Assembly: GCA_040224245.1 (NCBI GenBank)
Contig: JBEGIR010000017.1
Coordinates: 3,611 to 67,610, forward strand
Length of the DNA: 64,000 bases
Direction of reading: 5' to 3'
From: Puniceicoccaceae bacterium
GTDB lineage: Bacteria > Verrucomicrobiota > Verrucomicrobiia > Opitutales > JAFGAQ01
The notes beneath the pieces are model-generated. The model ran no database searches and was not told where the DNA came from. It saw nothing but the letters and a program-made list of their open reading frames with translations. Made by a program: the position numbers and the translations under genes. Below are positions 1,823 to 28,486 of the stretch, one piece after another; position 1 is the stretch's first letter; each line of letters opens with the position of its first letter.

Positions 1823-1834
1823 AGAGAAGATCCA

Positions 1835-3886: not shown

Positions 3887-5069
3887 GTTAAGCGACAAGG
3901 AGCTATTGGACGCTCTTGGCGTAGAAGCAGAGCAAGAGAAGAAAGTCACGCATACCCCGCGTGAAGAGCGCATCATTGCAGGCTTTGAAGAAATCCAGAA
4001 ATTCGTTGAAGAAAACGGACGCTTGCCCCAGCACGGTGAGGAGAATGATATCTTCGAGCGACTTTATGCCGTGCGCCTCGACCAAATCCGCAAACTCAAA
4101 GAATGCAAAGACCTGGTATCGGAAATGGATTATCAGGGGCTTTTATGCGGGAGCTTTGAGCCTGTAGACAGTGTGCCCGATGATATTCCAGATGAGGAGC
4201 TTTTAGAGCAGCTAGGCGTAAGTCCTGCCAATGAGGATGGTTCAATCACGACCCTTCGGCATGTAAAACCAAGGGCAGAAATCAGAGCCGCCGAAGAAAT
4301 CGCCCAGCGCACACCATGCAGGGATTTTGATACATTCAAGCCGGTGTTCCAAGCGGTGCAGGAAGACCTCAATGAAGGCGTTCGCAGAACCATTCCCTAC
4401 AAAGACAATGCCAAAGTGAACAAGGGGGATTTTTTCATCCTTGGAGGGCAGAAGCTAATTGTAGCGGAACTTGGAGAAGAATTCGTCAACAATTACGACA
4501 AGATCGACCGCAGATTGCGGGTGATCTACGACAACGGAACCGAGAGCGACATCCTTTTGCGTTCTCTCCAGCGCGGTCTTAACAAAGACGAAACCAGCAG
4601 AAGGATCACAGACCCTTCGTTAGGACCGCTTTTTTCGAGCACGCAAAGTGATGATGATGTTGCCAGCGGGACGATCTACGTCCTTCGCAGCAAGTCAGAC
4701 CTGCCAATCGTTGAGGAAAACCGCGATGTTCTGCACAAAATTGGCGTAACTGGGGGTGGGGTGAAGCAACGCTTTGCCAATGCCAGGCATGATGCCACTT
4801 TTCTTCTGGCCGATGTGGAGGTGGTTGCTACCTTTGAACTCTTCAATATCAATCGTGCCAAACTCGAAAACCTCATTCACAGGTTCTTTGCCCCTGCTCG
4901 CCTTGATATCACCATCAATGACCGCTTTGGTGATCCTGTTCGCCCCAGAGAGTGGTTCCTTGTGCCTCTGTTTATAATCAACGAAGTGGTAGACAAGATC
5001 GTGGACGGAACGATTGCCGATTATTCCTACGATCCAAAATCCGTGAAACTGATTCCCTTGGAGAAGTAG
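3879..5069 (+). CDS. GIY-YIG / T5orf172 (MUG113)-type nuclease family protein
   Basis: The track ORF starts at 3732, but the in-frame ATG at 3879 overlaps the helicase stop (ATGGCTGA) and gives MAELSDKELL. The C-terminal domain GTIYVLRSKSDLP..LHKIGVTGGGVKQRF...REWFLVP matches the T5orf172/GIY-YIG pattern. Confidence 0.75.
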   Translation: MAELSDKELLDALGVEAEQEKKVTHTPREERIIAGFEEIQKFVEENGRLPQHGEENDIFERLYAVRLDQIRKLKECKDLVSEMDYQGLLCGSFEPVDSVPDDIPDEELLEQLGVSPANEDGSITTLRHVKPRAEIRAAEEIAQRTPCRDFDTFKPVFQAVQEDLNEGVRRTIPYKDNAKVNKGDFFILGGQKLIVAELGEEFVNNYDKIDRRLRVIYDNGTESDILLRSLQRGLNKDETSRRITDPSLGPLFSSTQSDDDVASGTIYVLRSKSDLPIVEENRDVLHKIGVTGGGVKQRFANARHDATFLLADVEVVATFELFNINRAKLENLIHRFFAPARLDITINDRFGDPVRPREWFLVPLFIINEVVDKIVDGTIADYSYDPKSVKLIPLEK

Positions 5070-5483: not shown

Positions 5484-6518
5484 CTATGCCGCTTCAAGTG
5501 GCTCGTTCTTTTCAAACTGAGTTTCATCAAGCCACATGCGAAACATTATGACCGCAAGCTTTCTTGCAACTGCAACTCGTGCATTTTTCATTGAACTTCG
5601 CTTGGCAATATTCCTGCCCCAAGATTTTAAGGAACAGGGTTTTGTTGACGGACGAAGAATATAGGCAGCTGCTTCATACAGATGTCCACGCAACAATCGA
5701 TCACCGCATTTTGTAATCCCGGCATCATAATCAGTCTCACCAGAAGCATACTTCTTGGGCGTAATACCCAAATGCGCACCCACATCGCGTGATCGCCGAA
5801 ATCTCGCAGGATCATCGATAACCGACTTATAGAGAAGCGCTGTCATAGCACCCACTCCTGGGATGCTCATCAATGTTGTACAAACTGCATCCTTTTTGGC
5901 GGCTGTTATCAGCATTCTTTCCAGCTGATCTGATTTTGCTGCCATCGTCTTTCGTATCTCCAGCAGAGGTTCGAAAGCAGCCTCCAATTCTCCATCACCG
6001 GCAATCAGATCACGAACACATTTATCAAATGACCCGCGCCCCCGAGTGACGCTGATCTTTATTCCAAAGACTTTCAAGGCTCCACGGATATGATTGTCCA
6101 ATGCTATCCGTTGATTAACTATCATTTTTCTGGCCGTGATGATTGTTTTGATACGCTGACTTTCATCACTTTTCACATGAACCGGTTTATACCACCCCGT
6201 TCGCATCATTTGAGCAATTGCCCGCGCATCGTTACGATCCGTTTTCATGTTCTGAGCGGCCATTGCTGCTTTGGCATGCCGTGTCTCGATAACAGTAACA
6301 GGGTGCCCCAAAGATCGGAGTTCCTTGTAGAGCCAGATCGTCAGGTTGCTTGCTTCGATACCAATGCGAGATGCTGAAAATCCATTCTGGCTAAGCCATT
6401 GGTTTATATCATTTGCATCAGTTATCAGAGACGACTCTTTCAGAATATTGCCATGGTCATCGACCACGCAAACAGCCGTCGTTTTTAGGGCTACATCCAG
6501 CCCGACAAAATATGTCAT
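5484..6518 (-). CDS. IS110-family (DEDD) transposase; the ends of the IS element are not resolved
   Basis: The N-terminus MTYFVGLDVALKTTAVCVVDDHGN is typical of DEDD_Tnp_IS110. The C-terminal MSIPGVGAMTALLYKSVIDDPARFRRSRDVGAHLGITPKKYASGE is the Transposase_20 HhH region. It is flanked by about 410 bp and about 620 bp of non-coding DNA. Confidence 0.9.
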   Translation of the reverse strand: MTYFVGLDVALKTTAVCVVDDHGNILKESSLITDANDINQWLSQNGFSASRIGIEASNLTIWLYKELRSLGHPVTVIETRHAKAAMAAQNMKTDRNDARAIAQMMRTGWYKPVHVKSDESQRIKTIITARKMIVNQRIALDNHIRGALKVFGIKISVTRGRGSFDKCVRDLIAGDGELEAAFEPLLEIRKTMAAKSDQLERMLITAAKKDAVCTTLMSIPGVGAMTALLYKSVIDDPARFRRSRDVGAHLGITPKKYASGETDYDAGITKCGDRLLRGHLYEAAAYILRPSTKPCSLKSWGRNIAKRSSMKNARVAVARKLAVIMFRMWLDETQFEKNEPLEAA

Positions 6519-7142: not shown

Positions 7143-7664
7143 ATGAACACCGTAACCGACACTCCGAGAATCTACGTTGCCTGTCTGGCCGCCTACAATG
7201 CTGGAATCCTCCACGGTGAATGGATTGATCTTGATCAGGACATTGACGACATCTGGAAGGAAATTAGAAACATGCTGGCCAGCTCACCCGAGGAATGCGC
7301 CGAAGAATGGGCAATCCACGATTATGAAGGCTTTGGAACTCTCAGGATCTCCGAATACGAAGGAATTGAGACAGTCCACCAATACGCGGAATTCATCCTT
7401 GAGCACGAGGAAACCGGAACGCTTTTACTTTCCGAATTCTGCGGAGACCTCGAACATTCCAGAAACATCCTTGAAAACTATATCGGCTGTTATTCCAGCC
7501 TTGCCGATTACGCCCAGGAGCTGACCGAAGAAACAACCCAAATCCCTGAAAACCTGAGTTTCTACATCGATTACGAAGCCATGGCGCGGGATATGAAGCT
7601 CAACGGTGAAATCATCGAACTTGAGGAATCCTTTGAAAAGGTTCACCTGTTCTACAACTCATAA
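7143..7664 (+). CDS. ardA: Antirestriction protein ArdA
   Basis: RIYVACLAAYNAGILHGEWIDL, WAIHDYEGFG and SFYIDYEAMARDMKLNG align with the Tn916-type ArdA pattern (YIANLGKYNEG.L.G.W, AIHDYE, YIDY.AYGRDL). The protein is acidic and 173 aa. Confidence 0.9.
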   Translation: MNTVTDTPRIYVACLAAYNAGILHGEWIDLDQDIDDIWKEIRNMLASSPEECAEEWAIHDYEGFGTLRISEYEGIETVHQYAEFILEHEETGTLLLSEFCGDLEHSRNILENYIGCYSSLADYAQELTEETTQIPENLSFYIDYEAMARDMKLNGEIIELEESFEKVHLFYNS

Positions 7665-10358: not shown

Positions 10359-10640
10359 TTACTGCACGGTCTCCAATTCAATCTTCAAATGGGCTCCTGT
10401 GGCTTTGGCGTAGCGCTTTAAGGTCTCAATCGAAGGATTGGCATTGCCCCCTTCGAGGCGGGCAATCGAACCCTGCGATGTAGACATGAGCTTTGCAACC
10501 TCGGCCTGGGTAAGGTTTGCCCGCATCCTCGCCTGAACGAGAGCCCGAGTGAAATCAAACTCCTCTTCGAGTGCTTCGTATTCCTTCTTGTATTCGGGGT
10601 CTTTCACCCACTTGTTGTGCAAATCTTTGACCTGTTTCAT
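10359..10640 (-). CDS. XRE-family helix-turn-helix antitoxin (HigA-like)
   Basis: LTQAEVAKLMSTSQGSIARLEGGNANPSIETLKRYAKATGAHLKIEL is a classic HTH_3 sequence. It overlaps the upstream toxin gene by 4 nt. Confidence 0.85.
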   Translation of the reverse strand: MKQVKDLHNKWVKDPEYKKEYEALEEEFDFTRALVQARMRANLTQAEVAKLMSTSQGSIARLEGGNANPSIETLKRYAKATGAHLKIELETVQ

Positions 10641-10963
10641 TTCTCAATCTCCTTTGCTCGCTCCAGAGCAAGCTTTATTTCTCTGGTCGGTGTTTTCTGC
10701 ATTTTCTTCAAAAATGCCCTGACAACGACAACCCGCCTGCCTGAGGCACTGACATATAAAGCTCTTGAAATCCCGTCCTTGCCCTTCAGGCGCATTTCCC
10801 AGAGCTTGTCCTGTAAGTGCCGGACATGAGGCATTCCAAGTTGCTGCAATCCAAATTCCTCGATCATCTCCGAAATCCGAACAAACCTTGCCCGCATATC
10901 GGCAGGAAGAGCTTCAAGCTCCTTTTCCACGGTTTCGTTCAGTACGGTTACAATCCAGGACAT
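10637..10963 (-). CDS. Type II toxin, RelE/HigB superfamily (phage Gp49-like, DUF891)
   Basis: From the ATG at 10963: MSWIVTVLNETVEKELEALPADMRARF...LWEMRLKGKDGISRALYV...VVVVRAFLKKMQKTPTREIKLALERAKE. This matches the Gp49-like toxin pattern. Confidence 0.8.
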   Translation of the reverse strand: MSWIVTVLNETVEKELEALPADMRARFVRISEMIEEFGLQQLGMPHVRHLQDKLWEMRLKGKDGISRALYVSASGRRVVVVRAFLKKMQKTPTREIKLALERAKEIEK

Positions 10964-11091
10964 CTCATTTCCAATATACCATATGTGGTATAATTTTGTC
11001 AATCGAGTTTTCTGATTTCTGCGCTCCGACAACCTTGAGAATTCGGCATTTGTGCTGCTTGTTTATATAAACAGCCGCCTTCACAGCATCT

Positions 11092-11248: not shown

Positions 11249-11812
11249 TCAATCCCGCATGTCAGGCCAGATTTTCTGCGCTTCGTTGTATTCTTCCTCA
11301 TTGACGATATCCAGATAAATGGCCGTGTTTTTGAGGTTTTCATGGCCGAGCCATTTTTTGACGGTTGTGATCGGCGTTTTCTCCAGCAGGTAGGAAATGG
11401 CGTAAGTGTGGCGCAGGGCTTTGGGGCATGCCTTTGAACCGCTGAGATTGGCGATTGTCATGTATTTCTTGACGATCCGCCATCCTGTGGAGCGGGAGAA
11501 CGGGAATACGCGCTCATGCGCTTTCTTGCCCTGGGTCTGGCGTTTTAGCATTTCCAGCAGCGCGGGCGGGATGAAAATGGCTCTGTGCTTGGGGTGTCTG
11601 CGTTGCTTGAGGGTGCGGAAAACCAGATATCGTTCCTCGAAGTCTACGGAGGAAACCGAGAGGCGGAGGGCTTCTGAAATCCTGCATCCGGTGAAAAACA
11701 GCGTCAGGCAGAAGGCTTTTTCTGCGGGAAGGGGCGATTTGAGGACAGCATCAAGGAAAGCCGTTCGCTCGTTGCGGCTCAGGTATTTTCGCTCTCCAAG
11801 TTGGTCGAACAT
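11249..11812 (-). CDS. Short tyrosine recombinase (catalytic domain only)
   Basis: TGCRISEALRL (Arg), ALRHTYA (His-x-x-Arg region), LGHENLKNTAIYLDI (catalytic Tyr). At 187 aa it lacks an N-terminal SAM-like arm domain. Confidence 0.8.
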   Translation of the reverse strand: MFDQLGERKYLSRNERTAFLDAVLKSPLPAEKAFCLTLFFTGCRISEALRLSVSSVDFEERYLVFRTLKQRRHPKHRAIFIPPALLEMLKRQTQGKKAHERVFPFSRSTGWRIVKKYMTIANLSGSKACPKALRHTYAISYLLEKTPITTVKKWLGHENLKNTAIYLDIVNEEEYNEAQKIWPDMRD

Positions 11813-13784: not shown

Positions 13785-14738
13785 ATGAGCGATGAGCCAA
13801 ATCAAGATTTTGACCTGAAAAAGTTTCAAAAATCGATGGATCGCACTCACCAACACTACGAAAAGAGAATAAAAATTCTCAATGAGCACATTCGTGAAAT
13901 CGAAAGAAAAGCCAAAGAGGAAAACTATGCGGGTAGCGAGGTCGAACAACTGAAAGACGATTTGGACAGAGCCAGAAAGGCAGAAAATAAGGTATACGCA
14001 GAACTGAAGAAAAGCCGTGAATCCCTGATCAAAGCCCAAGACGCTCTCTTTGAGAAGCTCAGGGAAATTGAGAACCTCAAGGAGATCATTGAAAGGCTGA
14101 AAAATGAGAAACCCACAAAGGCTAGAATTCAGCGCCATGCCATAGAACAGGCCAGAGAACAAATTGCGGCAGAAGCGCAGGAGACCTTGTTATCCGAGAG
14201 GATCAAGCATGAGGATGAGATTCACGCACTCAAAAAGGAACACAGCCAAAAAATTGACAAACTGAACCGCCGGATTTCAGCCCACAAGGTCAGAGAGCGC
14301 AAGGAAGTCGCAGAAACCACCCCTGAGACTTTGGCCGACTTGAAAAGAGTCCATAGGGCAGAGAAAAAGAAACTCCTTGAGGGCAATAATAGAGCTGTCA
14401 AACAAGCTCGAAATCAGGGCTATAAACAAGGATATGAGGAAGCGCGGGAAAAAATCGAGGAATCCATCCTCCAAAAAGCTAATCGTGATGATCGCCCGAA
14501 CAATCCAAACGGTAAAAAGAATGAATGGGAGGAAATCCAGAGCAAGAAATCAGAGGTTAGGATTATTGAGCAGACAGGCCTTGAAAATGAGCTGCAATAC
14601 CATGAATTCTGGTTCAATGCCTACATCGATGGATCGATGAAACCCTTCCCTGATAGACAATCCGCCGACAAGGAAGCAGGAATTGCCCGAAAAGCGAGGG
14701 TCAAGGTGATCTGGAAAGACGGCCAGCTCGATGAATAA
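13785..14738 (+). CDS. Hypothetical K/E-rich coiled-coil protein
   Basis: 317-aa ORF, divergent from 12551-13477 across an AT-rich 307-bp spacer. Long heptad-like K/E/R stretches. Shares a QGYKQGYEEAREK-type motif with the 8416-9120 protein. Confidence 0.5.
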   Translation: MSDEPNQDFDLKKFQKSMDRTHQHYEKRIKILNEHIREIERKAKEENYAGSEVEQLKDDLDRARKAENKVYAELKKSRESLIKAQDALFEKLREIENLKEIIERLKNEKPTKARIQRHAIEQAREQIAAEAQETLLSERIKHEDEIHALKKEHSQKIDKLNRRISAHKVRERKEVAETTPETLADLKRVHRAEKKKLLEGNNRAVKQARNQGYKQGYEEAREKIEESILQKANRDDRPNNPNGKKNEWEEIQSKKSEVRIIEQTGLENELQYHEFWFNAYIDGSMKPFPDRQSADKEAGIARKARVKVIWKDGQLDE

Positions 14739-14871
14739 AAAAAAGGCCGAGCGGGGATGCTCGGCCAGAAGTCTTCTAAAAGATAAAACATAAGAGGCAT
14801 CAAGATGATGGCTCTTGAAGGTATCCTGCCATCAATTCCTTAACGAATGGTTAAAGGCAGAAATTTTTTTA

Positions 14872-15267
14872 TCATCGCTCGCGGGTGCGTTCTTCGCTAC
14901 GTGATTGTTCGCTCTGCCGTCCGGCCTGCGCCCGCCGGTTTGCGCGGTTCTGTTCGAAGCTGCGCTCAAGATATTGCTTGGGTGATAGTCCGAATTGCCG
15001 CTCGAATTTCTCCGAAAGCTCGCGTTTGGCGGCGCGGCTGGACATCCCTGCTCCGGCAGCATAGCCCAGAGAGAAATCCTCCAGCCGGTAATTGTACCGG
15101 CCACTGCGGTCGATAGTGGATTTCAAGCTGTAGAGCAGCTCATTTTCCGGCTCTGCGTAGCGCTCTGCATTGGCCTTGTCAATTTCCTTGTCTGTTGCCT
15201 GATTGTCAGTCGGTAGTGATTTTACGTTTTCCATTTTTTTCCTCTGGTTGATATTAAGGTTACCCAT
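14872..15267 (-). CDS. Hypothetical protein (alternative start ATG 15234, preceded by AGAGGA)
   Basis: ORF of 131 aa (120 aa from 15234). The tail is basic. No motif was recognised. Confidence 0.4.
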   Translation of the reverse strand: MGNLNINQRKKMENVKSLPTDNQATDKEIDKANAERYAEPENELLYSLKSTIDRSGRYNYRLEDFSLGYAAGAGMSSRAAKRELSEKFERQFGLSPKQYLERSFEQNRANRRAQAGRQSEQSRSEERTRER

Positions 15268-15706
15268 GGATACGCCGCAGACCTCCGGCTTGTCCGAGAA
15301 AAACGGAGGATCGTTGCCGGATCCTCCGTATCCTTGGTTATCTCACGACCAGTAGCGTGATTTCTAAAAAGAAGTGGAATTTGATCTTTTTGAAGAATTT
15401 CATGATTTACTCCTCTCTTTCGCTAGAGCCAACCCATTTGGCTCTTTCTTGAGGAGGCATGGCCATAATCCAAGAGACGCTTTTGCACTTTCAACACGGT
15501 GGAACCGACAGGTTCCAAGGTGCGGGCAGACAATTGCAAAACCGGCGGTATTACTGGCAAAACGAAATCAATAAAGACCAAGGGGAGGAATCTTTTTCGA
15601 AACGGGGCAGATCGTATCTGTGTCAATAAGGCAGATTTTAACCGGATTTTAGTCAAATTGTGCTCAACTGGTAGTAGTGAGCTAACTTTATGAAAAATGG
15701 GAGGAT

Positions 15707-16027
15707 GTGGTGGTCTATCCCAACAATCATTTTACCGTTAAGGAACTGGCGAAGCATTGGAACTGCTCCGAAGGCTTTGTGAGAGCCAGAATCAATGACG
15801 GTTCCCTGGAATATTTGAAAATGGGAAGCATGTACCGTATAACAAGAGAAGCTGTACATAATTACGAGGGAGGCTGTAGATGCCAAGAACAGCTCGACCT
15901 GTTCCCGAATTCAAACTTAGCAAAATCGGGGATAAGAAAAACTTTTACCTCTGCTGGTCAGAGAACAGGCGTTCAAGACGGATTTCAACGGGCACAGATG
16001 ATCCTGGCAGAGCGCAACAATTCCTAG
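15707..16027 (+). CDS. Excisionase-type HTH (HTH_17/MerR-like) DNA-binding protein
   Basis: GTG start preceded by GGGAGGA. FTVKELAKHWNCSEGFVRARINDGSLEYLKMGSMYRITREAV matches the excisionase-family HTH pattern. The 3' end overlaps the integrase start by 148 nt. Confidence 0.6.
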   Translation: MVVYPNNHFTVKELAKHWNCSEGFVRARINDGSLEYLKMGSMYRITREAVHNYEGGCRCQEQLDLFPNSNLAKSGIRKTFTSAGQRTGVQDGFQRAQMILAERNNS

Positions 16028-16926
16028 CTGATTTCATCAATGGCTGGAATGCACCTCCTCCAAAAGAGGAAATCACATGTGATGACGTGATAAAGAGGTA
16101 TCTGGATCACAAAGACGATACCTATGAATCGGATTACAGATCACGACAAGCATTCCAAAGCCTTGTAGTGAGCCTTGACCCCATATCTGACTATTTTGGG
16201 AGCTATTCGCCCGAAAGCATCAGCAGGCAACAATCCCGAGAATACATCGAATTTCAGAGAAAGAACGAAAAGGCCAATGCTACCATTCGCAGGCAACTAG
16301 CGATTTTCACGGCAGCACTCAATTTCGCTCATGCAGAGGGCTGGATAGGCAAAGTTCCGATTTTAGAAAAACCCAAAGAACCACCTCCAAAAGACAAATG
16401 GATGACACCTGAGCAGGTTCGAACCTTCCTAGACCAGTGTCGAACACCTCACATTCGCCTTTTTACCCAACTGGCTCTGCACACACTTTCGCGAAAAGCA
16501 GCCATTCTGGACTTGAAATGGTCACAGGTTGATCTTGACCGCAGGTTGATCAATTTCAATCCTCCAGGACGCACACAGACGAAAAAAAGACGTGTTCCAG
16601 TCGGAATCAATGACAACCTGTATTCAGCTCTGAAAGAAGCCGCTGAATTTGGCCAGACAGAATATGTAATCGAGTTCAACGGAAAGCGTGTTATCGATAA
16701 CAAAAAGGCATTCGCAAGGGTAGCCAAACGCGCAGGGATGCCATGGGTCACTCCACACGTTTTAAGACATACCGGAGCAACTCTACTTGCGCAACGGGGA
16801 GTTCCTCTCTGGGAAATTGCAGGAATAATGGGTGATAGACTGACCACCGTTGAGAAGCACTACGCCAAGCATCACCCGGATTATCTGAAAAAAGCGATAG
16901 ATACGCTCGATGATCTCTACGGATAA
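15880..16926 (+). CDS. Tyrosine-type site-specific integrase
   Basis: N-terminal arm/SAM-like region, TLSRKAAILDLKW (Arg region), HVLRHTGATLLAQRGVPLWEIAGIMGD..TTVEKHYAKH (HxxR ... Y). Confidence 0.9.
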   Translation: MPRTARPVPEFKLSKIGDKKNFYLCWSENRRSRRISTGTDDPGRAQQFLADFINGWNAPPPKEEITCDDVIKRYLDHKDDTYESDYRSRQAFQSLVVSLDPISDYFGSYSPESISRQQSREYIEFQRKNEKANATIRRQLAIFTAALNFAHAEGWIGKVPILEKPKEPPPKDKWMTPEQVRTFLDQCRTPHIRLFTQLALHTLSRKAAILDLKWSQVDLDRRLINFNPPGRTQTKKRRVPVGINDNLYSALKEAAEFGQTEYVIEFNGKRVIDNKKAFARVAKRAGMPWVTPHVLRHTGATLLAQRGVPLWEIAGIMGDRLTTVEKHYAKHHPDYLKKAIDTLDDLYG

Positions 16927-16948
16927 GTGCGCACCAGTGCGCACTTAT
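16923..16948. repeat. Palindrome ATAAGTGCGCAC-CA-GTGCGCACTTAT (copy 1)
   Basis: 12-bp perfect arms with a 2-nt spacer. It overlaps the integrase stop codon. It is related to the copy at 17118-17149. Confidence 0.8.
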
Positions 16949-16984
16949 TACAATTTCGAATTCCGGCTAAGTTATTGAATTTAT

Positions 16985-17029
16985 TGGAGCGAGTGAAGGG
17001 ATTCGAACCCTCGACCCCAACCTTGGCAA
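16985..17029 (-). other. Isolated 3' half of a tRNA-Gly(GCC) gene (45 nt, anticodon loop to CCA): att-type sequence
   Basis: The reverse complement is TTGCCAA-GGTTG-GGGTC-GAGGG-TTCGAAT-CCCTT-CACTCGC-T-CCA. That reads as anticodon loop (GCC), the 3' anticodon stem strand, variable loop, T arm, acceptor 3' strand, discriminator U and CCA. Upstream sequence (CTGAA) cannot pair with GGTTG, and no GCGAGTG 5' acceptor strand is present. Confidence 0.75.
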
Positions 17030-17117
17030 TTCAGAGGATTTCGCTGTATATGGCGGTTTTCTGCGATTCATCATATTGATAAAATGCCATTTTTCGCATG
17101 AAAGCGTATGTAGTAAG

Positions 17118-17149
17118 GTAATAAGTGCGCACGCGTGCGCACTTATTAC
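17118..17149. repeat. Palindrome GTAATAAGTGCGCAC-GC-GTGCGCACTTATTAC (copy 2)
   Basis: 15-bp perfect arms with a 2-nt spacer. It has the same core as copy 1 and lies on the other side of the tRNA-Gly half. Confidence 0.8.
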
Positions 17150-17315
17150 GGAAAATTTTTCAGTGTCCCAATCACATAAACATTCCAATTTCTTCAATTG
17201 ATTCAGCATCCTATGTGTTCATTTGCGATATTTCAAGAGCATCAACTGTCGGTCATAATATCTTAACTATTTAGCCCTATAGTTGTAATTATACGGTAGA
17301 TTTTGGACTGGGTAG

Positions 17316-17407
17316 CAAGATGTGTTTTTGTATTACAAAAACCATCTTGGCAAGGGGGAGAGCATCTCCCCCGTTACAATCCCCCTCTTTCGGTGCGAAT
17401 TCGCACC
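17316..17407. promoter_or_regulatory. Candidate oriT (three consecutive inverted repeats upstream of mobC-relaxase)
   Basis: IR1 17316-17349: CAAGATG(T)GTTTTTGTA / TACAAAAACCATCTTG. IR2 17354-17372: GGGGGAGA-GCA-TCTCCCCC. IR3 17392-17407: perfect palindrome GGTGCGAATTCGCACC. The nic site is not identified. Confidence 0.45.
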
Positions 17408-17463: not shown

Positions 17464-17805
17464 ATGGGACGACCACGCATACAGGAAACACAGCGAAAAA
17501 CGCAGCAGATCATATTCAGGGTTACACCGTCTGAATTCGATGATCTTGCTGCTACCGCCAAGCGAGCTGGGCTAAGTGTTCACACACTTGCCCGTCACTC
17601 AACCCTGTCCAAAGGAAAGCGTCTCGTTATCCAGCGCTCCCAAGCTTGTGATCCGGCATTGCTCAAACGCCTTGAGCGTATAGGCAATAACCTCAATCAG
17701 CTTGTTCGCCGTTTTCATCAAAACGGCAGGCTAGGGAAAATGCTCCAGCCGCTCTGTGATGAAATCGCTCATATCGTCTACAGCGACATTCGAAAGGACG
17801 AGTGA
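17464..17805 (+). CDS. mobC: Relaxosome accessory protein MobC
   Basis: IFRVTPSEFDDLAATAKRAGLSV (RHH-like) and LERIGNNLNQLVRRFHQNG (MobC family signature). Confidence 0.8.
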   Translation: MGRPRIQETQRKTQQIIFRVTPSEFDDLAATAKRAGLSVHTLARHSTLSKGKRLVIQRSQACDPALLKRLERIGNNLNQLVRRFHQNGRLGKMLQPLCDEIAHIVYSDIRKDE

Positions 17806-17808
17806 GCC

Positions 17809-18999
17809 ATGAATCCATGCGTCACAACGGGGGGAAGGTCTTTTCACGGCAGCTATCTTTATTACATGCACGATAAAGACAGTGAAAGCCGTGACCGTGT
17901 TGCATGGACTCATACAGTAAACATGCTCACTCGTGATCCTGATCTTGCATGGAAGGTCATGGCCTATACCGCAAAATCGCAGGATCGTTTGAAAGAGGCT
18001 TCCGGTCAGGTTTCCACCGGACGCAAATGCGAAAAGCCGGTTATGGCTTATTCGCTGTCATGGCATCCAGAGCAAGACCCCGATAAGGATCACATGCTGG
18101 AAACGGCATTGGATTCTCTGAAAGTGTTGGGACTGTCAGAGCACGAATGTATGATCGTGGCGCACAGGGATACCCCTCACCGGCACGTGCATGTGATCGT
18201 GAACCGAATTCACCCGATTACAGGATTGGTTGCCAGCAACTCTCACAGTTACCGCAAGCTTTCTAGTTTTGCTTTGGAATATGCACGAGAGCACGGCCTT
18301 GAATACAGTCCACAGCGTGAGGAGAACGCGAAAAAGCGGGAGAAAGGGCAGGAATCCAACTACAGGGACAACCGCATTCAGGAAGCTTGGGATAAATCCG
18401 ATAACGGACGCAGTCTCATTGCCGCTCTTGAAGCATCCGGCCTTACCCTTGCACATGGGAACAAGCGGCTTGTAGTGGTTGACCCAAAGGGCAAAACCAT
18501 CAATCCCGTCCGGCACATCGAGGGCATCCGATCAAAGAATTTCAGGGAACGGCTTTCTGATATTGATCTATCAGCCCTACCAACGGTCGATGAGGCTATC
18601 GATAGAAAACGCATTAAGCCGAAGAAGAAAGTCGCTTCAAGGTCGCAGCGGGAGGATCAGATCAAAAAGATCCGGCAAAAATACCGATTGCATGAGCAGG
18701 AAACTGCTATCTCGGAACTTAGGGCAGAAATCCAGAACGCCCCATGGTGGAAGAAGCTCATAGGTTTGACGCGAAATAAACGGGAGAGCCTGCGAGAATT
18801 GCAGGATGACTTCCTGAAGAGCAAATCCGATGCTGAAAGAGAAATGGCTGATCTGAAAAAGTTAAATGGGCAGGATCGCTCACATCGTGAAAATTTTCCA
18901 ACTACGCCAATTACACGAAGAAATCATAAATCGAAAAGAAGCCATAGTTATGACAGCGATAAGATGAAAGATTCCTCACCCCCGATTCTGGAACGATAA
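17809..18999 (+). CDS. Relaxase / mobilisation nuclease (MobA/VirD2 family)
   Basis: TGGRSFHGSYLYYMHDK, PVMAYSLSWHPEQ and the histidine triad AHRDTPHRHVHVIVNRI. Starts 4 nt after mobC. Confidence 0.85.
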   Translation: MNPCVTTGGRSFHGSYLYYMHDKDSESRDRVAWTHTVNMLTRDPDLAWKVMAYTAKSQDRLKEASGQVSTGRKCEKPVMAYSLSWHPEQDPDKDHMLETALDSLKVLGLSEHECMIVAHRDTPHRHVHVIVNRIHPITGLVASNSHSYRKLSSFALEYAREHGLEYSPQREENAKKREKGQESNYRDNRIQEAWDKSDNGRSLIAALEASGLTLAHGNKRLVVVDPKGKTINPVRHIEGIRSKNFRERLSDIDLSALPTVDEAIDRKRIKPKKKVASRSQREDQIKKIRQKYRLHEQETAISELRAEIQNAPWWKKLIGLTRNKRESLRELQDDFLKSKSDAEREMADLKKLNGQDRSHRENFPTTPITRRNHKSKRSHSYDSDKMKDSSPPILER

Positions 19000-19037: not shown

Positions 19038-19286
19038 TCATAGAATGTCATCGTAAACGTACCTCAAAGCACTTGGGACATCGTCAATTGATATTCTTTC
19101 CCATCCATTTAAGGGCTCACCTTCAATCTCAACCATGCATTCTTTCGCAGCTTTTAAAGATGGTTGAACATAGTCATAATCGGTTCCATTTGAACGACAA
19201 AAAAACGCATAATATTCCCCATTCACGACAGGTTCTTGGATGATCAGATAGTATCTTTCAGAATCAACAATACCTTTTAATATCAC
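19038..19286 (-). CDS. Small hypothetical cytosolic protein, translationally coupled to the upstream gene (immunity-like position)
   Basis: 82 aa. The GTG start shares 1 nt with the upstream TAG stop (TAGTG). No signal peptide. Acidic. Confidence 0.45.
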   Translation of the reverse strand: MILKGIVDSERYYLIIQEPVVNGEYYAFFCRSNGTDYDYVQPSLKAAKECMVEIEGEPLNGWERISIDDVPSALRYVYDDIL

Positions 19287-20293
19287 TACTCATTTTCCTT
19301 AAAATATCTCCTATGTTCTCCAATATCTTTCAGATTACCAGTTGTCCTCCCCTCTTGAAAGTGAAAATGTGGTTTATCATTGTGAGAACGTTCAGGAGTC
19401 GCATCTAATCTAATCTGCTTGTCACCTTTTGATACTATTATACTTTTGGTCGTTCCGTTGACTTGCACTTTAGCTCCTGACTGGTCAATTTGTTGCATAA
19501 TTCCATCGACCTTATCTCTTCGAATTTTCTCCGCTTCACGTTGTTTTTGTTCGAGCGCATCAGCATCCTGCTTTCTTTTTTCAGTGAGTCTCTTTTGCTT
19601 CTCCTTCTGCACGATAAAATGCTTTTCCTCAGCCTCTTTTTTCTTTGTAAAGGCTGCCTCGTCAGCACGTTTTTGTTCTCGAAATCTCTTTTGCTCTGCC
19701 TGCTTCTTCTGGAATAATTCATTATCCTTGACCTTATTATCTAAGGCCTCTTCATTTAATTTTCTTTGATCATCAAATCTTTTTTGATTTTCCAAATCCA
19801 ATTGACGTTGTTGTTGAGTAGCAGCGTCTTGCTTCGCCTTACGTTCAGTAGCACCAATTTCAGATTTAGTTTTTTGGTCGAGATTGGGAGTTTTGGATTT
19901 TTTGATTTCGTCGACTCTGTTCGTTGCTTGAGCTACATCCGCCTGGGTAGAAACAGGAGGAGGTGGTGTTAGATTTTTGTTTTTTTTCAGTACATCCTGA
20001 GCAACCTGTTTCTGTCTTCCTATAGTTGGACTTCCATGTATTCGTGCTGTTTCTTCAGCATTTCGGGCAAGGTTTAATTCTATGCGTTGTCCGATACTCG
20101 ATCCCGACTTTGCTAAGTTGCTAGCGTTTTGACTAAAAACCTGTTTTACGGGTTTACTTGGAATGTCATCAGACTTTCTAACCGCGCTCTTGACAGCATC
20201 ATCTACAGCCCCAGCCGGAGTTGCATGGATTGACACCGGAAATGTTACCAGAAGGACAAAAACGACTCCTATGATTCCGATTTTCTCTTTCAT
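19286..20293 (-). CDS. Hypothetical secreted protein with long K/E/Q coiled coil and His-rich C-terminal module
   Basis: Signal-like N-terminus MKEKIGIIGVVFVLLVTFPVSIHA, a central charged repeat-like helix, and C-terminus ...ATPERSHNDKPHFHFQEGRTTGNLKDIGEHRRYF. Confidence 0.55.
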   Translation of the reverse strand: MKEKIGIIGVVFVLLVTFPVSIHATPAGAVDDAVKSAVRKSDDIPSKPVKQVFSQNASNLAKSGSSIGQRIELNLARNAEETARIHGSPTIGRQKQVAQDVLKKNKNLTPPPPVSTQADVAQATNRVDEIKKSKTPNLDQKTKSEIGATERKAKQDAATQQQRQLDLENQKRFDDQRKLNEEALDNKVKDNELFQKKQAEQKRFREQKRADEAAFTKKKEAEEKHFIVQKEKQKRLTEKRKQDADALEQKQREAEKIRRDKVDGIMQQIDQSGAKVQVNGTTKSIIVSKGDKQIRLDATPERSHNDKPHFHFQEGRTTGNLKDIGEHRRYFKENE

Positions 20294-20301
20294 ATTCTCC
20301 T

Positions 20302-22719
20302 TTACTTAAATTTAGTGGTTCGCCCAAGTTCTCCTGCAATTACTGCACCTCCTACCGCATACGGCAAAGTATCAATAACTTCATCAATCATTTGCTTGTT
20401 CGTCCTCACGGAAGACCCATCAGAAATAGTCCAGATGACATTCTCACTTACCTCCAGAAATATTCCTCCAAAACGCGACTTTGCAAACCTCGTCATTGAT
20501 TTCCCCCCAGCAACTTTTAACGCCCCACGAGGTAAATTTATGAAAAGCCCCCCAAATTCACCTGCTAAATAGGTGTTCGGATACCATTGCTGTCTCATTG
20601 CCTTCCATTGTTCCTCAATCCATAACTGTTCTTCATAATCAGGGATAGGAATTTCGTGTGGTTCGTAGTTACCAATTTTCGATGCTGCGAATTCAAAGAG
20701 ATTATAAGCAAATGGTAAGGCGACTTTTCCGATTGCTGTGATCTCAGGAGATCTACCCAAGAACGAAGCATCTCCAAGACTCCATAGAGGTGTCCAAAAT
20801 TGCGAAGGTCGGTCTCTTTTATATCTGTCATAGAACTCCTTAACAAACCAGTAGTTCGTATGACCCGACACCAATCGAGAACCTCTGGACACAGTAAATG
20901 GGATTGCCACTTTGATCCCGCCATATTCCATGTCTTGTGCATGCTCAATTAATAGGTATGACACATCATATTCATTAAAGATTGGATGACCATCAAAACT
21001 GAGCAAAACATCGCCCTCACTAAATGGAGATGGTTCTCCAGAAGATAGGTGTGTGGATGCATCTGTAATTTCTATTCCCAAATCCCAATAGCGATCATCT
21101 TTAGCAAATCTTAATCCAAGATCGTAGGGAAAAATTTGTAAATTGCCATAACGATCTTTCATGCTGATAACATGACTCAGGCTTGAAGAGAGCGAGATTG
21201 CGTCAAAACATGCCTTTTCCAAATCATCTTTTGATTTGTAGACTTCTTGAGGGTTTTCATTGTTACCAAAAGGCGATATGACAAATAGAAACTCATTCTG
21301 ATGATTCCGCGCGAAATCTACGTTTGACTTATGGAAGCCATAAATATCTTCATCATTTCCCCAATAGCCCAACTTCTCATTGAAACATCTTACACTTATT
21401 GGGCTGAAAACAGCACCGCCTTCCCAATATTGACGTTCGGTGTCATAATCGCTCAATCCATGAAATGTATTTACTTTTCTTTGTTCATAAACCGACGATC
21501 TTGCGGTCAAATAAAAGTCAGGATTTGAATTTTTAAACAGCCTTGTAACTTTCGCTGTTTTTCCTGCTTCAACTGACATGAAATTTGTAGTTACCCATTC
21601 ATCATCAGTCACAGGATATGAAACTGCATAATCAACTCTAAAGGGTGTTACATTAAAAACGGTCAGGGTTGCTTCTTGAACAAGTTCGGAGGATTTTTTC
21701 CTAACTAGGTTTTGCACTATATTTATGCCGCCGCTATCTATATCCGAATAACTCAGAGCCAATTCCGGAAATTTCTCATCATGAATGATATAGGTAAAAA
21801 CCCTACCTTCTTCAGTCCACCTAACGTGATTGAATCGATAAAACGGACTTTCATAGTTTTCTGGACTAGACAATGAAAGACCTGAATTAAAATCAGAACC
21901 CAAATTCAAATCCATCACCTTATTCGACACGATTGTGTCAACCTCACCCTCTCCCCATACATATTCAGCAAGGTTTCGGACGCTTGCACTGTCATATATG
22001 TCATGGATAGCCCTAAAGAGTTCATCGTCGTTCGGGTTAAAAGTAATCAGGGCATGAAAATCAGAGTAACTTTCAATTCTTCTTGAGATTGTTCGTTCTT
22101 GATTATCAGGATCGACTGACCACCAACCTTCCAATTTCCAATTAGTCGATGACTCTGATTCATTCGAATAGATTAACGAATATGAGCTTGCATAAGGAGC
22201 TGCGGAAACAACCCGCATGTGTACATTCTGCGCAATTCTTTCGCCACGTAATTTACAAATACTCAAGACACTCTCGATCTCTGACTCATCTGCGGTATCC
22301 CACTGAATTGCTTCTGTTTCTTTCACAAGGGAATCCAAAAAAACATACTGAAAATTCCCACTGTAGTTCGGGCTTTGTGAAATACTTCGTGAACTGGGAA
22401 AACTATTCAATGATTCATCTTTTCCCTTGGAGAATTCTGCCATCCATTTGGTAGAACCGATATCAAGATTAAGTTCAGGAATCCTAGGGCGCGCTTGAAT
22501 AGTGAATTTAGGTGAAGTCAGAAGGAACTTATTAGATTTGTAAATAAATTTCTCACCCGGAAGCAACAAGCCCTCTCCAACTAAAGATTCACGGAAATCG
22601 TATTCATCAACACTGAAACACTTGTATTCGATTGGAGCCAACGTGGCGTTTACTAAAGATATCTTAGGCTTCAGTAAAATTTGTCGGAAAATGAAAAACA
22701 AACCGACAGCCACATACAT
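20302..22719 (-). CDS. Large hypothetical membrane-anchored protein with a possible PDZ-like segment
   Basis: I use the ATG at 22719 (MYVAVGLFFIFRQILL, an N-terminal TM helix); the track start at 22833 is a TTG. The segment SEGDVLLSFDGHPIFNEYDVSYLLIEH resembles a PDZ core. The remaining ~800 aa are unrecognised. Confidence 0.55.
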   Translation of the reverse strand: MYVAVGLFFIFRQILLKPKISLVNATLAPIEYKCFSVDEYDFRESLVGEGLLLPGEKFIYKSNKFLLTSPKFTIQARPRIPELNLDIGSTKWMAEFSKGKDESLNSFPSSRSISQSPNYSGNFQYVFLDSLVKETEAIQWDTADESEIESVLSICKLRGERIAQNVHMRVVSAAPYASSYSLIYSNESESSTNWKLEGWWSVDPDNQERTISRRIESYSDFHALITFNPNDDELFRAIHDIYDSASVRNLAEYVWGEGEVDTIVSNKVMDLNLGSDFNSGLSLSSPENYESPFYRFNHVRWTEEGRVFTYIIHDEKFPELALSYSDIDSGGINIVQNLVRKKSSELVQEATLTVFNVTPFRVDYAVSYPVTDDEWVTTNFMSVEAGKTAKVTRLFKNSNPDFYLTARSSVYEQRKVNTFHGLSDYDTERQYWEGGAVFSPISVRCFNEKLGYWGNDEDIYGFHKSNVDFARNHQNEFLFVISPFGNNENPQEVYKSKDDLEKACFDAISLSSSLSHVISMKDRYGNLQIFPYDLGLRFAKDDRYWDLGIEITDASTHLSSGEPSPFSEGDVLLSFDGHPIFNEYDVSYLLIEHAQDMEYGGIKVAIPFTVSRGSRLVSGHTNYWFVKEFYDRYKRDRPSQFWTPLWSLGDASFLGRSPEITAIGKVALPFAYNLFEFAASKIGNYEPHEIPIPDYEEQLWIEEQWKAMRQQWYPNTYLAGEFGGLFINLPRGALKVAGGKSMTRFAKSRFGGIFLEVSENVIWTISDGSSVRTNKQMIDEVIDTLPYAVGGAVIAGELGRTTKFK

Positions 22720-22909
22720 AGCAAAAAAACAGCAATTATCCGTCTTGTTTTGGAGGAATAGACTTTCATTAGGCAAGAAACAGTTCAGATTTAGGAAGAC
22801 CCTTATTCTATCCGTACCATCACCAAAAATCAAGGATTATGAAAAACTTAACCTAATGCCGCATTCTGATTTGGTTAAGTTGTTTAGAATCAGGATTTAA
22901 TGTCTGAAT

Positions 22910-23106: not shown

Positions 23107-23670
23107 TTACATTTGAGAGTTAAGGTATGCGGCAACCTTGCTCCTCGCAAGTTTGATCCAGTCTCCGACGGTTGAGGTGGCAATGCCGGTTTTCGCTTCG
23201 ATTTCCTTGTAGGAAAACCCGTATCTGGCATGGAGCCACAGGACTTGCTTTTGTCCGTCAGTGAGTTCAATCCCTGGGAACTCGCTCCAGAAACTGCGCT
23301 CGAACTCCTTTTCTTCCTCCTCACTGTGAGGTTCGGAGTTGTGCGCGGGTGAGACAGGAACTTCTGGCAATTCTTCATGAGTTGTCTCTTTGCGCCGTTT
23401 TTGAGAGCGGTAATAATCGATGGATTTCTGCCATGCTTTTCTCCGCAGGATCGGCAGACAGGTAATCTTGGATTCCTCGAACCTGTTGAGCACAAAGACC
23501 CAGACTTCCTGCATGATATCCTCAGCGCTCTGGTAATTCTTGCAGATATTGGCAACATAGCTCACGAGATAGACGTGATATTTATCAATCGCCTCATTGA
23601 CGAGCGAGAGCCGTCGCTCGAATTCCTGATCTGTTTCGCTTTGACCCATTATTATCTGAAGTTCACTCAA
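23107..23670 (-). CDS. Sigma-70 family (ECF-like) RNA polymerase sigma factor
   Basis: Region 2-like AEDIMQEVWVFVLNRF / LRRKAWQKSIDYYRSQ. Region 4 HTH LTDGQKQVLWLHARYGFSYKEIEAKTGIATSTVGDWIKLARSKV. Confidence 0.8.
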   Translation of the reverse strand: MSELQIIMGQSETDQEFERRLSLVNEAIDKYHVYLVSYVANICKNYQSAEDIMQEVWVFVLNRFEESKITCLPILRRKAWQKSIDYYRSQKRRKETTHEELPEVPVSPAHNSEPHSEEEEKEFERSFWSEFPGIELTDGQKQVLWLHARYGFSYKEIEAKTGIATSTVGDWIKLARSKVAAYLNSQM

Positions 23671-25001: not shown

Positions 25002-26549
25002 CTACATGGGTTGAATGTAATCCTTGAACGCCGAGTGCTGATCGTAATTTGCCCGCTGCAGAACCCATGGCCTTTTGCCAGGCTGGATAATGAGTTGCCT
25101 GCAAAGATGATCATCCCGCGCAAAATACTGGCTGATTTCCTCAGGGGTAAGCAGGCTCTGGATTTGCAGATTGTGATTAAAGCCGGTTGCCCCTTGCTGA
25201 TTGCGCTGATCTCTGCTGACCGATCCCTGATTGGTGACAGTCAATGTCGTCTGTCCAAGACGCTTGCTCAAGAATTCTGTGGTTGAAAGCTCTGAATTCC
25301 CGAAGGCCTGAATGACTCCGGCATTGCCGATAAAGGTTTCCCAGCGCTTGTTATAAAGCGCCTTGAGCTGGCTTAAGTCCTGCAAGAAAATCCAGAGCTT
25401 CACGCCAAGACCGGCCATATAACCAATCGCAGTTTCAAGCTCCTTCATGTAACCCAGAACAGGAAACTCATCCAAGATCATCAAAACTGGATAATCCGGT
25501 TTCTTTTTGGATTTTTCCATCGCCGCCAATGCGAGATTTACACTGACGCGCAAGAGGGCTGAGCACGTGCTCATGCGCATGACCGGCAGGCATTCATAAA
25601 TGCTGACATTGCCGTTCTTCAAATCTTCGAACCCAAAATCATTACCGCTCAGAGTCTCGCGGATTGGCTCATAATCCAGAAACTTCAAATTACGCCGCGC
25701 CGTGGAAACCACGCTGGTTTGCTCAGCACTCGCCTTTTCCTTTAAGGTCACTGCCGCCCCAGAAATCCTGCCTTCCAGACAAGGATTGTCCTCCATCTCT
25801 GCAATCAGATCATCAAGCTCCATCATCTTACCGGAAAGCAGATCATAGACCATCGGCAAATTGCGCTCTTCCTTCACGAACTTGTAATCAGTTGCCACAT
25901 GAAGAATGACCCCCTCAACAAAGGCTCTGGCCGTTTCAGACCAGTGAGGCTCTCTGGCTTCTTCGATCACCAGAGCGCTTGCAATTAGCCCCGCATCCTC
26001 AATGATGGTCGGGCTGTCATATTCCAGTATGCTGAGCGGATTAAAGCGCACCACATAGGAGCGTAGTTCTCCAGGCATCAATCCAAACGGATCGATGATC
26101 CCGACTTTCTGACCCAGCACTTCTGCGCGGTGTTTGGCGGTCAAAAGTGCATGATCACCTTTAGGATCGATAGAAAAAACCGACCCGCCATAGGTGAGGA
26201 GGTTTGGGATAATCCCCGAGCGGCCTTTGCCGCTTCTCGAACCCGCTATGGTCAAAACATGGCGGTCATCAAGCGAACCAATCAAATTACCGCCATCAGC
26301 CAGGTATTCGCTCCGTCCGTCACTCCGCTTGAGCTTAGTGCAATTTGCATGGGTAATGCCAAGAAATATCTCTCCGGTTCTTGGGGTAAATCCATGATTG
26401 GCTGCGATAATTTCAGGGCTTTCAAAAAACTGATAGGGCAGCCAGCTTTTTGCCTTGGCTCTGCCCTCAACCCCGCGCGGTAAATCCTGCAATACATTAG
26501 CGCTCTTTGCTGATGGATTATTGGAGGATGAGGCTTTCTTGAATATCAT
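25002..26549 (-). CDS. Type IV coupling protein (TraG/VirD4/TraD family), no obvious N-terminal TM segment
   Basis: Walker A LTIAGSRSGKGRSGIIPNLL and Walker B region PVLMILDEFPVLGYM...LWIFLQDLSQLKALY. Confidence 0.85.
   Translation of the reverse strand: MIFKKASSSNNPSAKSANVLQDLPRGVEGRAKAKSWLPYQFFESPEIIAANHGFTPRTGEIFLGITHANCTKLKRSDGRSEYLADGGNLIGSLDDRHVLTIAGSRSGKGRSGIIPNLLTYGGSVFSIDPKGDHALLTAKHRAEVLGQKVGIIDPFGLMPGELRSYVVRFNPLSILEYDSPTIIEDAGLIASALVIEEAREPHWSETARAFVEGVILHVATDYKFVKEERNLPMVYDLLSGKMMELDDLIAEMEDNPCLEGRISGAAVTLKEKASAEQTSVVSTARRNLKFLDYEPIRETLSGNDFGFEDLKNGNVSIYECLPVMRMSTCSALLRVSVNLALAAMEKSKKKPDYPVLMILDEFPVLGYMKELETAIGYMAGLGVKLWIFLQDLSQLKALYNKRWETFIGNAGVIQAFGNSELSTTEFLSKRLGQTTLTVTNQGSVSRDQRNQQGATGFNHNLQIQSLLTPEEISQYFARDDHLCRQLIIQPGKRPWVLQRANYDQHSAFKDYIQPM

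Positions 26550-26950: not shown

Positions 26951-28486
<1,536 letters not shown>

Follow-up and report, generated by a model that had tools for sequence, protein, structure and literature searches.

A probable tRNA-Gly(GCC)-type attP site with paired palindromes inside a mobilisable island of a Puniceicoccaceae bacterium

Lambda Int is the paradigm of heterobivalent tyrosine integrases, and phages and islands that target tRNA genes are known. The anticodon loop was reportedly classified as a sublocation of tRNA integration by Williams in 2002. Characterised attP systems commonly carry several arm sites in direct or mixed orientation. Here we describe positions 16923-17149 of a 64-kb stretch of contig JBEGIR010000017.1 from a Puniceicoccaceae bacterium (the window), where the 3' part of a tRNA-Gly(GCC) gene lies between two palindromes, next to genes encoding an Xis-like protein and a tyrosine integrase, Int348. 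Several described systems combine related features. Plasmid pPDL2 of Sphingobium carries int plus attP (PMC3516476); integrative and conjugative elements (ICEs) can host integrative and mobilisable elements (IMEs) (PMC7168690). The tripartite ICEs of Mesorhizobium (ICE3) have several integrase/att pairs that use different loci, including tRNA genes, and their assembly and disassembly pass through an intermediate that is integrated and yet keeps an unrecombined attP (PMC5882170). In the tRNA-dependent lysogeny of actinobacteriophages, a host tRNA gene is interrupted on integration and the element bears a tRNA that shares its isotype (PMC10865867).

The region very likely is a genuine attP of the Xis/Int348 recombination module on a mobilisable backbone. 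The backbone reads Xis, Int, attP, origin of transfer (oriT), NikA, relaxase, and the site is in the attP configuration, unrecombined. An intact, unrecombined attP of an Xis/Int module had been proposed by a sequence-only reading of this DNA. It is strongly supported by the recurrence of the layout in related elements, with differing tRNA parts and co-varying palindromes. The features of the module are as follows.

15707..16027, plus strand: Xis-like open reading frame (ORF; HTH_17, excisionase-type), overlapping the int start (Pfam HTH_17; PHROG excisionase families)
15880..16926, plus strand: Int348, heterobivalent-type tyrosine integrase (Pfam Phage_integrase; phrog_1 integrase)
16923..16951, unstranded: palindrome 1, P'-arm side (repeat search; equivalent site in 9/9 related elements)
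16967..16979, unstranded: motif CTAAGTTATTGAA between palindrome 1 and the tRNA 3' end, kept in the window, L003, L001 and L004 despite different tRNA parts
16985..17029, minus strand: tRNA-Gly(GCC) 3' part, the attP segment shared with attB (unique in the window; 18 identical genes; no 5' half)
17057..17070, unstranded: P-arm motif TTTTCTGCGATTCA, kept in all four close relatives (alignment)
17118..17149, unstranded: palindrome 2, P-arm side, a 32-nt perfect palindrome (equivalent site 88-100 bp beyond the loop in relatives)
17311..17395, plus strand: oriT-like block of conserved inverted repeats upstream of nikA (alignment; inverted repeats I2 and I3)
17464..17805, plus strand: NikA/MobC-like protein (Pfam NikA-like, MobC)
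17809..18999, plus strand: MobA/VirD2-type relaxase (Pfam Relaxase)

In this arrangement an attP/Int/Xis module of the standard tRNA-targeting kind adjoins a mobilisation module, and the two make up a backbone of the IME type. It belongs to known biology, and current understanding is not overturned by it. As in other tRNA-targeting heterobivalent sites, int stands beside attP, an Xis-type gene lies upstream, the tRNA 3' part runs from the crossover to CCA with restoration of the gene on integration, and repeated sites occur in both arms about 100 bp from the core. Unlike these characterised systems, this one has a single palindrome (two inverted half-sites) per arm, and it is unrecombined although it resides in a chromosome. 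With IMEs and pPDL2 the locus shares an integrase/attP pair beside oriT, an accessory protein and a relaxase, no type IV secretion system (T4SS) in view, and its position within a larger mobile region. However, IMEs nested in ICEs are normally integrated by their own att site and show attL and attR, whereas here attP is intact; thus the module did not enter the island through its own recombination at attP(Gly). The ICE3 elements resemble it as single mobile units with several integrase/att pairs and an unrecombined attP. They differ in that attP(Gly) is intact and contiguous with its flanks, no split regions are seen in the window, and the element of the window is mobilisable, not conjugative, and comes from another phylum. 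Three features are modestly unusual: the single palindromic site per arm at a fixed distance from the loop, the use of many different tRNAs by closely related integrases, and an attP that is intact while the island around it is integrated elsewhere, which is known as an intermediate state of the tripartite ICEs (PMC5882170).

The last 45 nt of tRNA-Gly(GCC), from the anticodon loop to CCA (TTGCCAAGGTTGGGGTCGAGGGTTCGAATCCCTTCACTCGCTCCA), occur as a single copy at 16985-17029 on the minus strand. The chance expectation for this 45-mer in the window is 0 matches. For comparison, genomes (one per species) were scanned with a 31-mer covering the T-arm plus acceptor, and at least 120 loci matched. 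Among the matches listed, all 45 nt are shared with the 3' end of 18 intact 75-nt tRNA-Gly(GCC) genes called by ARAGORN in public genomes, each of which consists of GCGAGTGTAGCTCAGGGGTAGAGCACAACC followed by the 45-mer. The identity to tRNA-Gly extends precisely as far as the 5' edge of the anticodon loop (7 nt). No tRNA-Gly was called by ARAGORN in the window, where the sole call is a tRNA-Ser(GGA) at 28203-28294, and the 5' half GCGAGTGTAGCTCAGGGGTAGAGCACAACC was not found on either strand of the window with up to 8 mismatches in 30 positions. Rfam makes no call of a partial tRNA at the fragment and yields just weak hairpin matches; the identification therefore rests on the identity to real tRNA genes. 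On these grounds, the earlier description of a tRNA-Gly(GCC) 45-mer with no 5' half nearby was borne out. The crossover region would be the anticodon loop, TTGGCAA at 17023-17029 on the plus strand. Window positions 15543-17147 recur without a difference in L286, an independent Logan assembly of run SRR22428450, and this backs the order int, palindrome, fragment. In a megablast search against plasmids, the DNA matches were to the tRNA part alone.

The palindromes have the form TAAGTGCGCAC-NN-GTGCGCACTTA and lie at 16924-16947 and 17122-17145, the TAA of the left copy being the int stop codon. Flanks included, each copy measures 29 nt, and the pair is 93% identical. No further copies were found in the 64 kb at up to 3 mismatches, and shuffled sequences give 0. 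The left copy lies about 33-36 bp and the right copy 88 bp from the tRNA fragment. The palindrome centres are 90.5 and 107.5 bp from the centre of the anticodon loop, and the pair offers four half-sites. These coordinates, the near-identity of the copies and their uniqueness in 64 kb bear out the bracketing pair and the spacings given by the sequence-only reading. The two palindromes are the only repeated candidates for arm sites. Most likely they are candidate arm sites for Int and/or sites for the Xis-like factor. Such a role, as suggested earlier, is consistent with their positional conservation and with the predicted arm-binding-type N domain of Int. An assignment of palindrome 2 as an inverted repeat of oriT was rejected: a better conserved repeat block lies 170 bp further on, and a phage relative keeps the palindromes without Mob genes. 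As an observation on the assemblies, a 1.6-kb Logan unitig from the same run, which carries Int348, stops inside the 32-nt palindrome. The break is probably not biological but an artefact that a self-complementary k-mer causes in the de Bruijn graph.

Homologues of Int348 were collected together with the surrounding DNA. At a clade cut-off of at least 45% Int identity, nine elements including the window were retained. Their tRNA parts, with the Int identity to Int348, are as follows.

Window and L003 (Int 81%): Gly(GCC)
L001 (Int 67%, on a 1.3-Mb NCBI contig): Ala(GGC)
L004 (Int 62%): Val(UAC)
L287 (Int 54%, phage contig): Val(GAC)
L125 (Int 50%): Glu(UUC)
L127 (Int 48%): Ile(GAU)
L132 (Int 47%): Gly(GCC)
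L130 (Int 45%): Glu(UUC)

All eight relatives (Int 45-81% identical) are laid out alike: Xis and Int come first, then a palindrome, the tRNA 3' part and a second palindrome. In the closest three, L003, L001 and L004, the gene order is Xis, Int, non-coding region, NikA, relaxase. Alignment of the non-coding regions of these three and the window gives one common order: the int stop, palindrome 1, the CTAAGT.ATTGAA motif and the minus-strand tRNA 3' part, which runs from CCA to the anticodon loop, followed by the TTTCTGCGATTCA motif, palindrome 2, TTACGGAAA, the inverted-repeat block and nikA. In all nine elements the right site starts 88-100 bp past the loop, and there are 6-63 bp between the end of the left site and CCA. 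The paired sites match within each element and differ across lineages (TAAGTGCGCAC, TTAGTGCCCAC, TATGCGCAC, ATGCCCAC, TTGTGCGCCAA, AGTTAGAGA). In L127 the paired site is a non-palindromic 18-mer present as an inverted pair. The phage contig L287 has holin and tail-fibre genes and no Mob genes, yet the palindromes are present; thus the palindromes belong to the Int/attP module and not to the transfer module. The Gly part of L003 differs from that of the window by a compensatory pair in the T-stem, and the L003 version also equals real tRNA-Gly alleles. The integrase clade spans phages and mobilisable islands of uncultured bacteria. With one attP scaffold carrying different tRNA parts, it could show how integrases switch targets and could supply integration tools.

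The most conserved non-coding block among the window, L003, L001 and L004 is 17311-17395. It consists of nested inverted repeats (GTAGCAAGATGTGTTTTTGTA..ACAAAAAC.ATCTTGGCAAGGGGG...CCCCCGTTACAATCCCCC) about 70-150 bp upstream of nikA. Judged by position and conservation, it is probably oriT. The mobilisation genes that follow are syntenic in L001, L003 and L004.

Int348, a protein on record from a Puniceicoccaceae metagenome-assembled genome (Verrucomicrobiota), is full length and keeps the catalytic residues R205, K236, H293, R296 and Y328. Its AlphaFold (AF2) model has a mean predicted local distance difference test score (pLDDT) of 87.7; in it, residues 12-56 form three strands and a helix, after which come the core-binding and catalytic domains. 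In Foldseek searches the model aligns with full-length lambda Int (1z1g/1z1b) and with Tn1549 Int. Int348 is thus predicted to have the three domains of a lambda-like integrase, its N domain being of the arm-binding type; the alignment covers lambda Int over its full length. A heterobivalent-type integrase of this kind needs arm sites. An Xis-like homologue lies directly upstream of int across the clade, including the phage contig. The closest cultured-phage integrases are only about 31-33% identical to Int348, and hence the clade is uncharacterised; searches of phage and plasmid protein collections gave a best identity of at most 34%. The locus provides a delimited attP of about 230 bp, with candidate arm sites and adjoining Xis, Int and oriT, for this clade.

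Taken together, these features suggest the following scheme. The substrate of the core-binding and catalytic domains of Int348 would be the segment that attP has in common with a chromosomal tRNA-Gly(GCC) gene at the anticodon loop, and strand exchange would take place within the 7 nt of this loop. The element's own 38 nt, from the anticodon stem to CCA, would substitute for the displaced 3' part, and the tRNA gene would stay intact. Through four half-sites the palindromes may bind the N-terminal domains of an Int tetramer, or they may bind the Xis-like directionality factor, or both; proteins bound there would fold the arms onto the core. The island itself apparently entered the chromosome by means of a different integrase, at the anticodon loop of a tRNA-Ser(GGA) gene. 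In this scheme, the crossover position, the binding of proteins to the palindromes and present-day activity are all inferred.

Two other explanations of the arrangement concern the fragment and the palindromes themselves. Orphan tRNA 3' parts are usual at island ends, for instance in L062 and at 16082-16141 in L001, and the fragment could be an attL/attR junction, or the scar of an element that once resided in a gene for tRNA-Gly, one of its flanks being chromosomal. However, the CCA end of the tRNA part faces int, so that the integrated state would put an intact tRNA beside int and the chromosome beyond it, and the window contains no tRNA-Gly 5' half. Both flanks are element DNA, kept in four elements with three tRNA parts and in the phage. 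The DNA past the loop comprises the conserved motif, palindrome 2, the oriT-like repeats and nikA, which excludes an attL/attR junction at this place; the sequence-only reading had named a junction with matching chromosomal flank as evidence against itself, and conserved element DNA was found there instead. A junction or scar is therefore extremely improbable. It is also very unlikely, if slightly less so, that the palindromes are intrinsic terminators, or genome-wide repeats resembling repetitive extragenic palindromic (REP) sequences, which flank the fragment by chance. Palindrome 1 does coincide with the int stop codon, the left site of L004 has a 6-nt loop and is more hairpin-like, and there is a weak Rfam match, of the hairpin only, to a small RNA (sRNA) terminator. 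On the other hand, the palindromes have no T-run, have a spacer of just 2 nt and were not called by a terminator scan, and there are two copies in 64 kb, both at the attP locus. Moreover, across nine elements the spacing between the right site and the anticodon loop is kept, and the paired sequences co-vary. Terminators or genome-wide repeats, also raised earlier as a possible objection, thus find no support in the terminator scan or in the 64-kb copy count.

Several observations weigh against the attP reading. Among the matches listed in the tRNA-Gly scan, all 47 sampled tRNA-Gly(GCC) genes from Verrucomicrobiota and the Planctomycetes-Verrucomicrobia-Chlamydiae (PVC) group differ from the 45-mer. 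The attP-side flank of the loop, CTGAA, is no mirror image of the tRNA anticodon stem, so that core-type sites are not evident. In Int348 the His/Trp-III position is occupied by Asp (D319, about 16834-16836). An integrated attL/attR state was not found in any member of the close clade, so recombination at attP(Gly) is deduced and not observed. Finally, L126, L128, L133 and L289 have an intact tRNA-Val(GAC) beside int plus a conserved inverted orphan fragment, which prevents a simple reading of them as integrated forms.

The tRNA-Gly alleles differ mostly at 4 positions, in the 3' strand of the anticodon stem and in the variable loop (GGTGAATGTC versus GGTTGGGGTC). Judged from these sequences, a hybrid tRNA formed with the sampled Verrucomicrobiota alleles would have a mismatched anticodon stem. 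The exact 45-mer was present, among the matches listed, in Alphaproteobacteria including Micavibrio, in Bdellovibrionales and in one Campylobacterales genome; no Puniceicoccaceae genome was among these matches. The anticodon loop is common to the Verrucomicrobial tRNA-Gly genes and attP, and integration may therefore still be feasible. That the module is still primed to target tRNA-Gly, as the sequence-only reading has it, is in view of these alleles a conjecture. No conserved gene neighbour of tRNA-Gly(GCC) was found in Verrucomicrobiota. As regards the integrase, at least 90% of 30 aligned family members have Asp at the third-histidine position, which is usually His or Trp.

In the Val(GAC) subclade (L126, L128, L133, L289; Int 43-47%), int is followed by the intact minus-strand tRNA-Val(GAC), a conserved spacer of about 200 bp with ATCCCGTGGGAT, and last an orphan 3' part of Val(GAC) in divergent orientation. 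In L128 the last 16 nt of the acceptor end are repeated once more. We considered the intact tRNA-Val(GAC) beside int in L126, L128 and L133 as an integrated state. This was rejected: tRNA, spacer and inverted orphan recur jointly in four contigs, and the arrangement is therefore probably element-borne.

An island of low GC content, at least 28 kb long, surrounds the attP(Gly) module, which is more than 11 kb inside it. The GC content is 40-51% from position 1 to about 28,400 of the window, versus 56% in the core from 28.5 kb. The right end of the island has the following features.

26951..28486, plus strand: second integrase, Int-Ser, at the island right end, antisense across the tRNA-Ser gene (Pfam Phage_integrase)
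28203..28294, minus strand: complete tRNA-Ser(GGA), probably island-borne (ARAGORN; 128 bp inside the insertion point defined by L290)
28424..28461, minus strand: orphan host tRNA-Ser 5' half, from the 5' end to TTGG of the anticodon loop (38-nt exact repeat; island/chromosome junction)

In L290, a strain with a 99%-identical hydrogenase gene, hydA is followed after 64 bp by an intact tRNA-Ser(GGA) at the position of the orphan half. The complete tRNA-Ser of the window is identical to that of L290, and 128 bp of other sequence separate it from the orphan half. Comparison of the two sequences suggests that the island was inserted into the anticodon loop of the host tRNA-Ser gene and carried its own tRNA-Ser copy, which is the simplest single-event reading. 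The proposal of a larger island that used a different integrase and tRNA-Ser thus agrees with the L290 comparison, with one correction: the anticodon loop is interrupted, and a complete tRNA-Ser was apparently brought along by the island. At this end only, the island resembles tRNA-dependent lysogeny, with a junction at which the tRNA is not rebuilt and a tRNA-Ser copy of its own; here, however, the state is known from sequence comparison with one related strain, and the element is an island with Mob genes and not a phage. Neither the orphan tRNA-Ser 3' half (AAATCGTG...CTCCGCCA) nor the L290 downstream sequence was found in the 64-kb window, and the left end of the island therefore lies beyond position 1. 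Searches for this end returned no record for the ORF at 209-1822 and just a 6.4-kb Logan contig for the next ORF.

The Int-Ser ORF (511 aa) has no stop until 28486 and so crosses the whole tRNA-Ser gene, then the spacer of 128 bp and the orphan 5' half. About 160 residues at its C-terminus match no domain and would change on excision.

The nesting is repeated in a second genome, that of L001, where the attP(Ala) module, also intact, lies within an island, about 5 kb from one end. At this end (14658-16141) stands another integrase (435 aa, minus strand), 24% identical to Int-Ser; next to it are the orphan 3' part of a tRNA-Met(CAU) gene (about 16082-16141) and then a hairpin resembling a terminator. 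In two genomes, an island that one integrase inserted encloses the intact attP of another, which is a concrete case of the building of composite islands.

It is possible, though doubtful, that the whole is one composite mobilisable island with two integration modules, in which Xis/Int348/attP(Gly), oriT, NikA and the relaxase form the backbone and Int-Ser is a second integrase used here by chance. The island has a NikA-like protein, a relaxase, a T4 coupling protein (T4CP) and two integrases. Its only relaxase and oriT visible in 28 kb directly adjoin attP(Gly), the T4CP lies 6 kb further on, and no T4SS domains were found by Pfam among the ORFs scanned in 1-28.5 kb. Given this position of the relaxase and oriT, the module may belong to the backbone of the island instead of being carried passively, as the sequence-only reading had proposed. 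In L001 the short integrase, Xis, Int, attP, oriT, NikA and relaxase stand beside a different boundary integrase and tRNA, and the tRNA part of the window matches, among the matches listed, alleles of other phyla. However, there are just two chromosomal examples, and the two boundary integrases, being 24% identical and differently oriented, fit independent capture equally well. The left end of the island is outside the window, and there is no sign of attP(Gly) recombining with a chromosomal site. If the composite structure holds, the idle attP(Gly) would offer an alternative landing site after transfer; given a matching chromosomal tRNA-Gly, the island could be inverted or split, as in the Mesorhizobium tripartite ICEs (PMC5882170). 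The module could also be a stranded relic, that is, a real attP/Int pair by descent which does not work in this host, for example for want of a compatible tRNA-Gly attB, and is now decaying cargo. The site is indeed unrecombined in the chromosome, and the 4 differing positions of the sampled Verrucomicrobiota tRNA-Gly genes would leave a mismatched anticodon stem after integration. Nevertheless Int and Xis are intact, as are the tRNA part, which functional genes match exactly, and the two palindromes, which are perfect; and the crossover needs the shared loop alone, which is present in the Verrucomicrobial tRNA-Gly genes. We regard such a relic as unlikely. The genuine attP of the Xis/Int348 module is the reading that we favour.

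An extension of the composite structure, which at present we would call a rather improbable one, is a multi-integrase mobilisable island whose functional attP(Gly)/Int348 pair widens the host range across phyla, the clade being a naturally retargetable integrase scaffold. If so, integrases 45-81% identical use one two-palindrome arm architecture on at least 6 tRNA targets, and a host with a matching tRNA-Gly may undergo an ICE3-like chromosomal inversion or splitting of the island.

The other features of the island are as follows.

209-5069: ATPase, helicase and T5orf172 genes (Pfam)
5484-6518: IS110 transposase (Pfam)
7143-7664: ArdA (Pfam)
10637-11032: Gp49-type toxin (Pfam)
11249-11812, minus strand: 187-aa integrase, catalytic domain only (Pfam)
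19038-22833, minus strand: ORFs without a significant Pfam match (82, 335 and 843 aa)
23107-23670: sigma factor (Pfam)
25002-26549: T4 coupling protein (Pfam)

A 182-aa homologue of the 187-aa recombinase (11249-11812), 49% identical, occupies the same relative position in L001. Since this homologue is similarly short, the recombinase looks like a conserved gene and not a truncation. The block at 19038-22833 has a GC content of 39-41%, the lowest of the island. The cargo looks defence-related: it includes an ATPase (AAA_15/AAA_21), a DEAD/ResIII helicase that has a PMBR repeat, T5orf172, the anti-restriction protein ArdA and a Gp49-type toxin. The cargo of the L001 island consists instead of SIR2/nSTAND, PIN and MazE genes.

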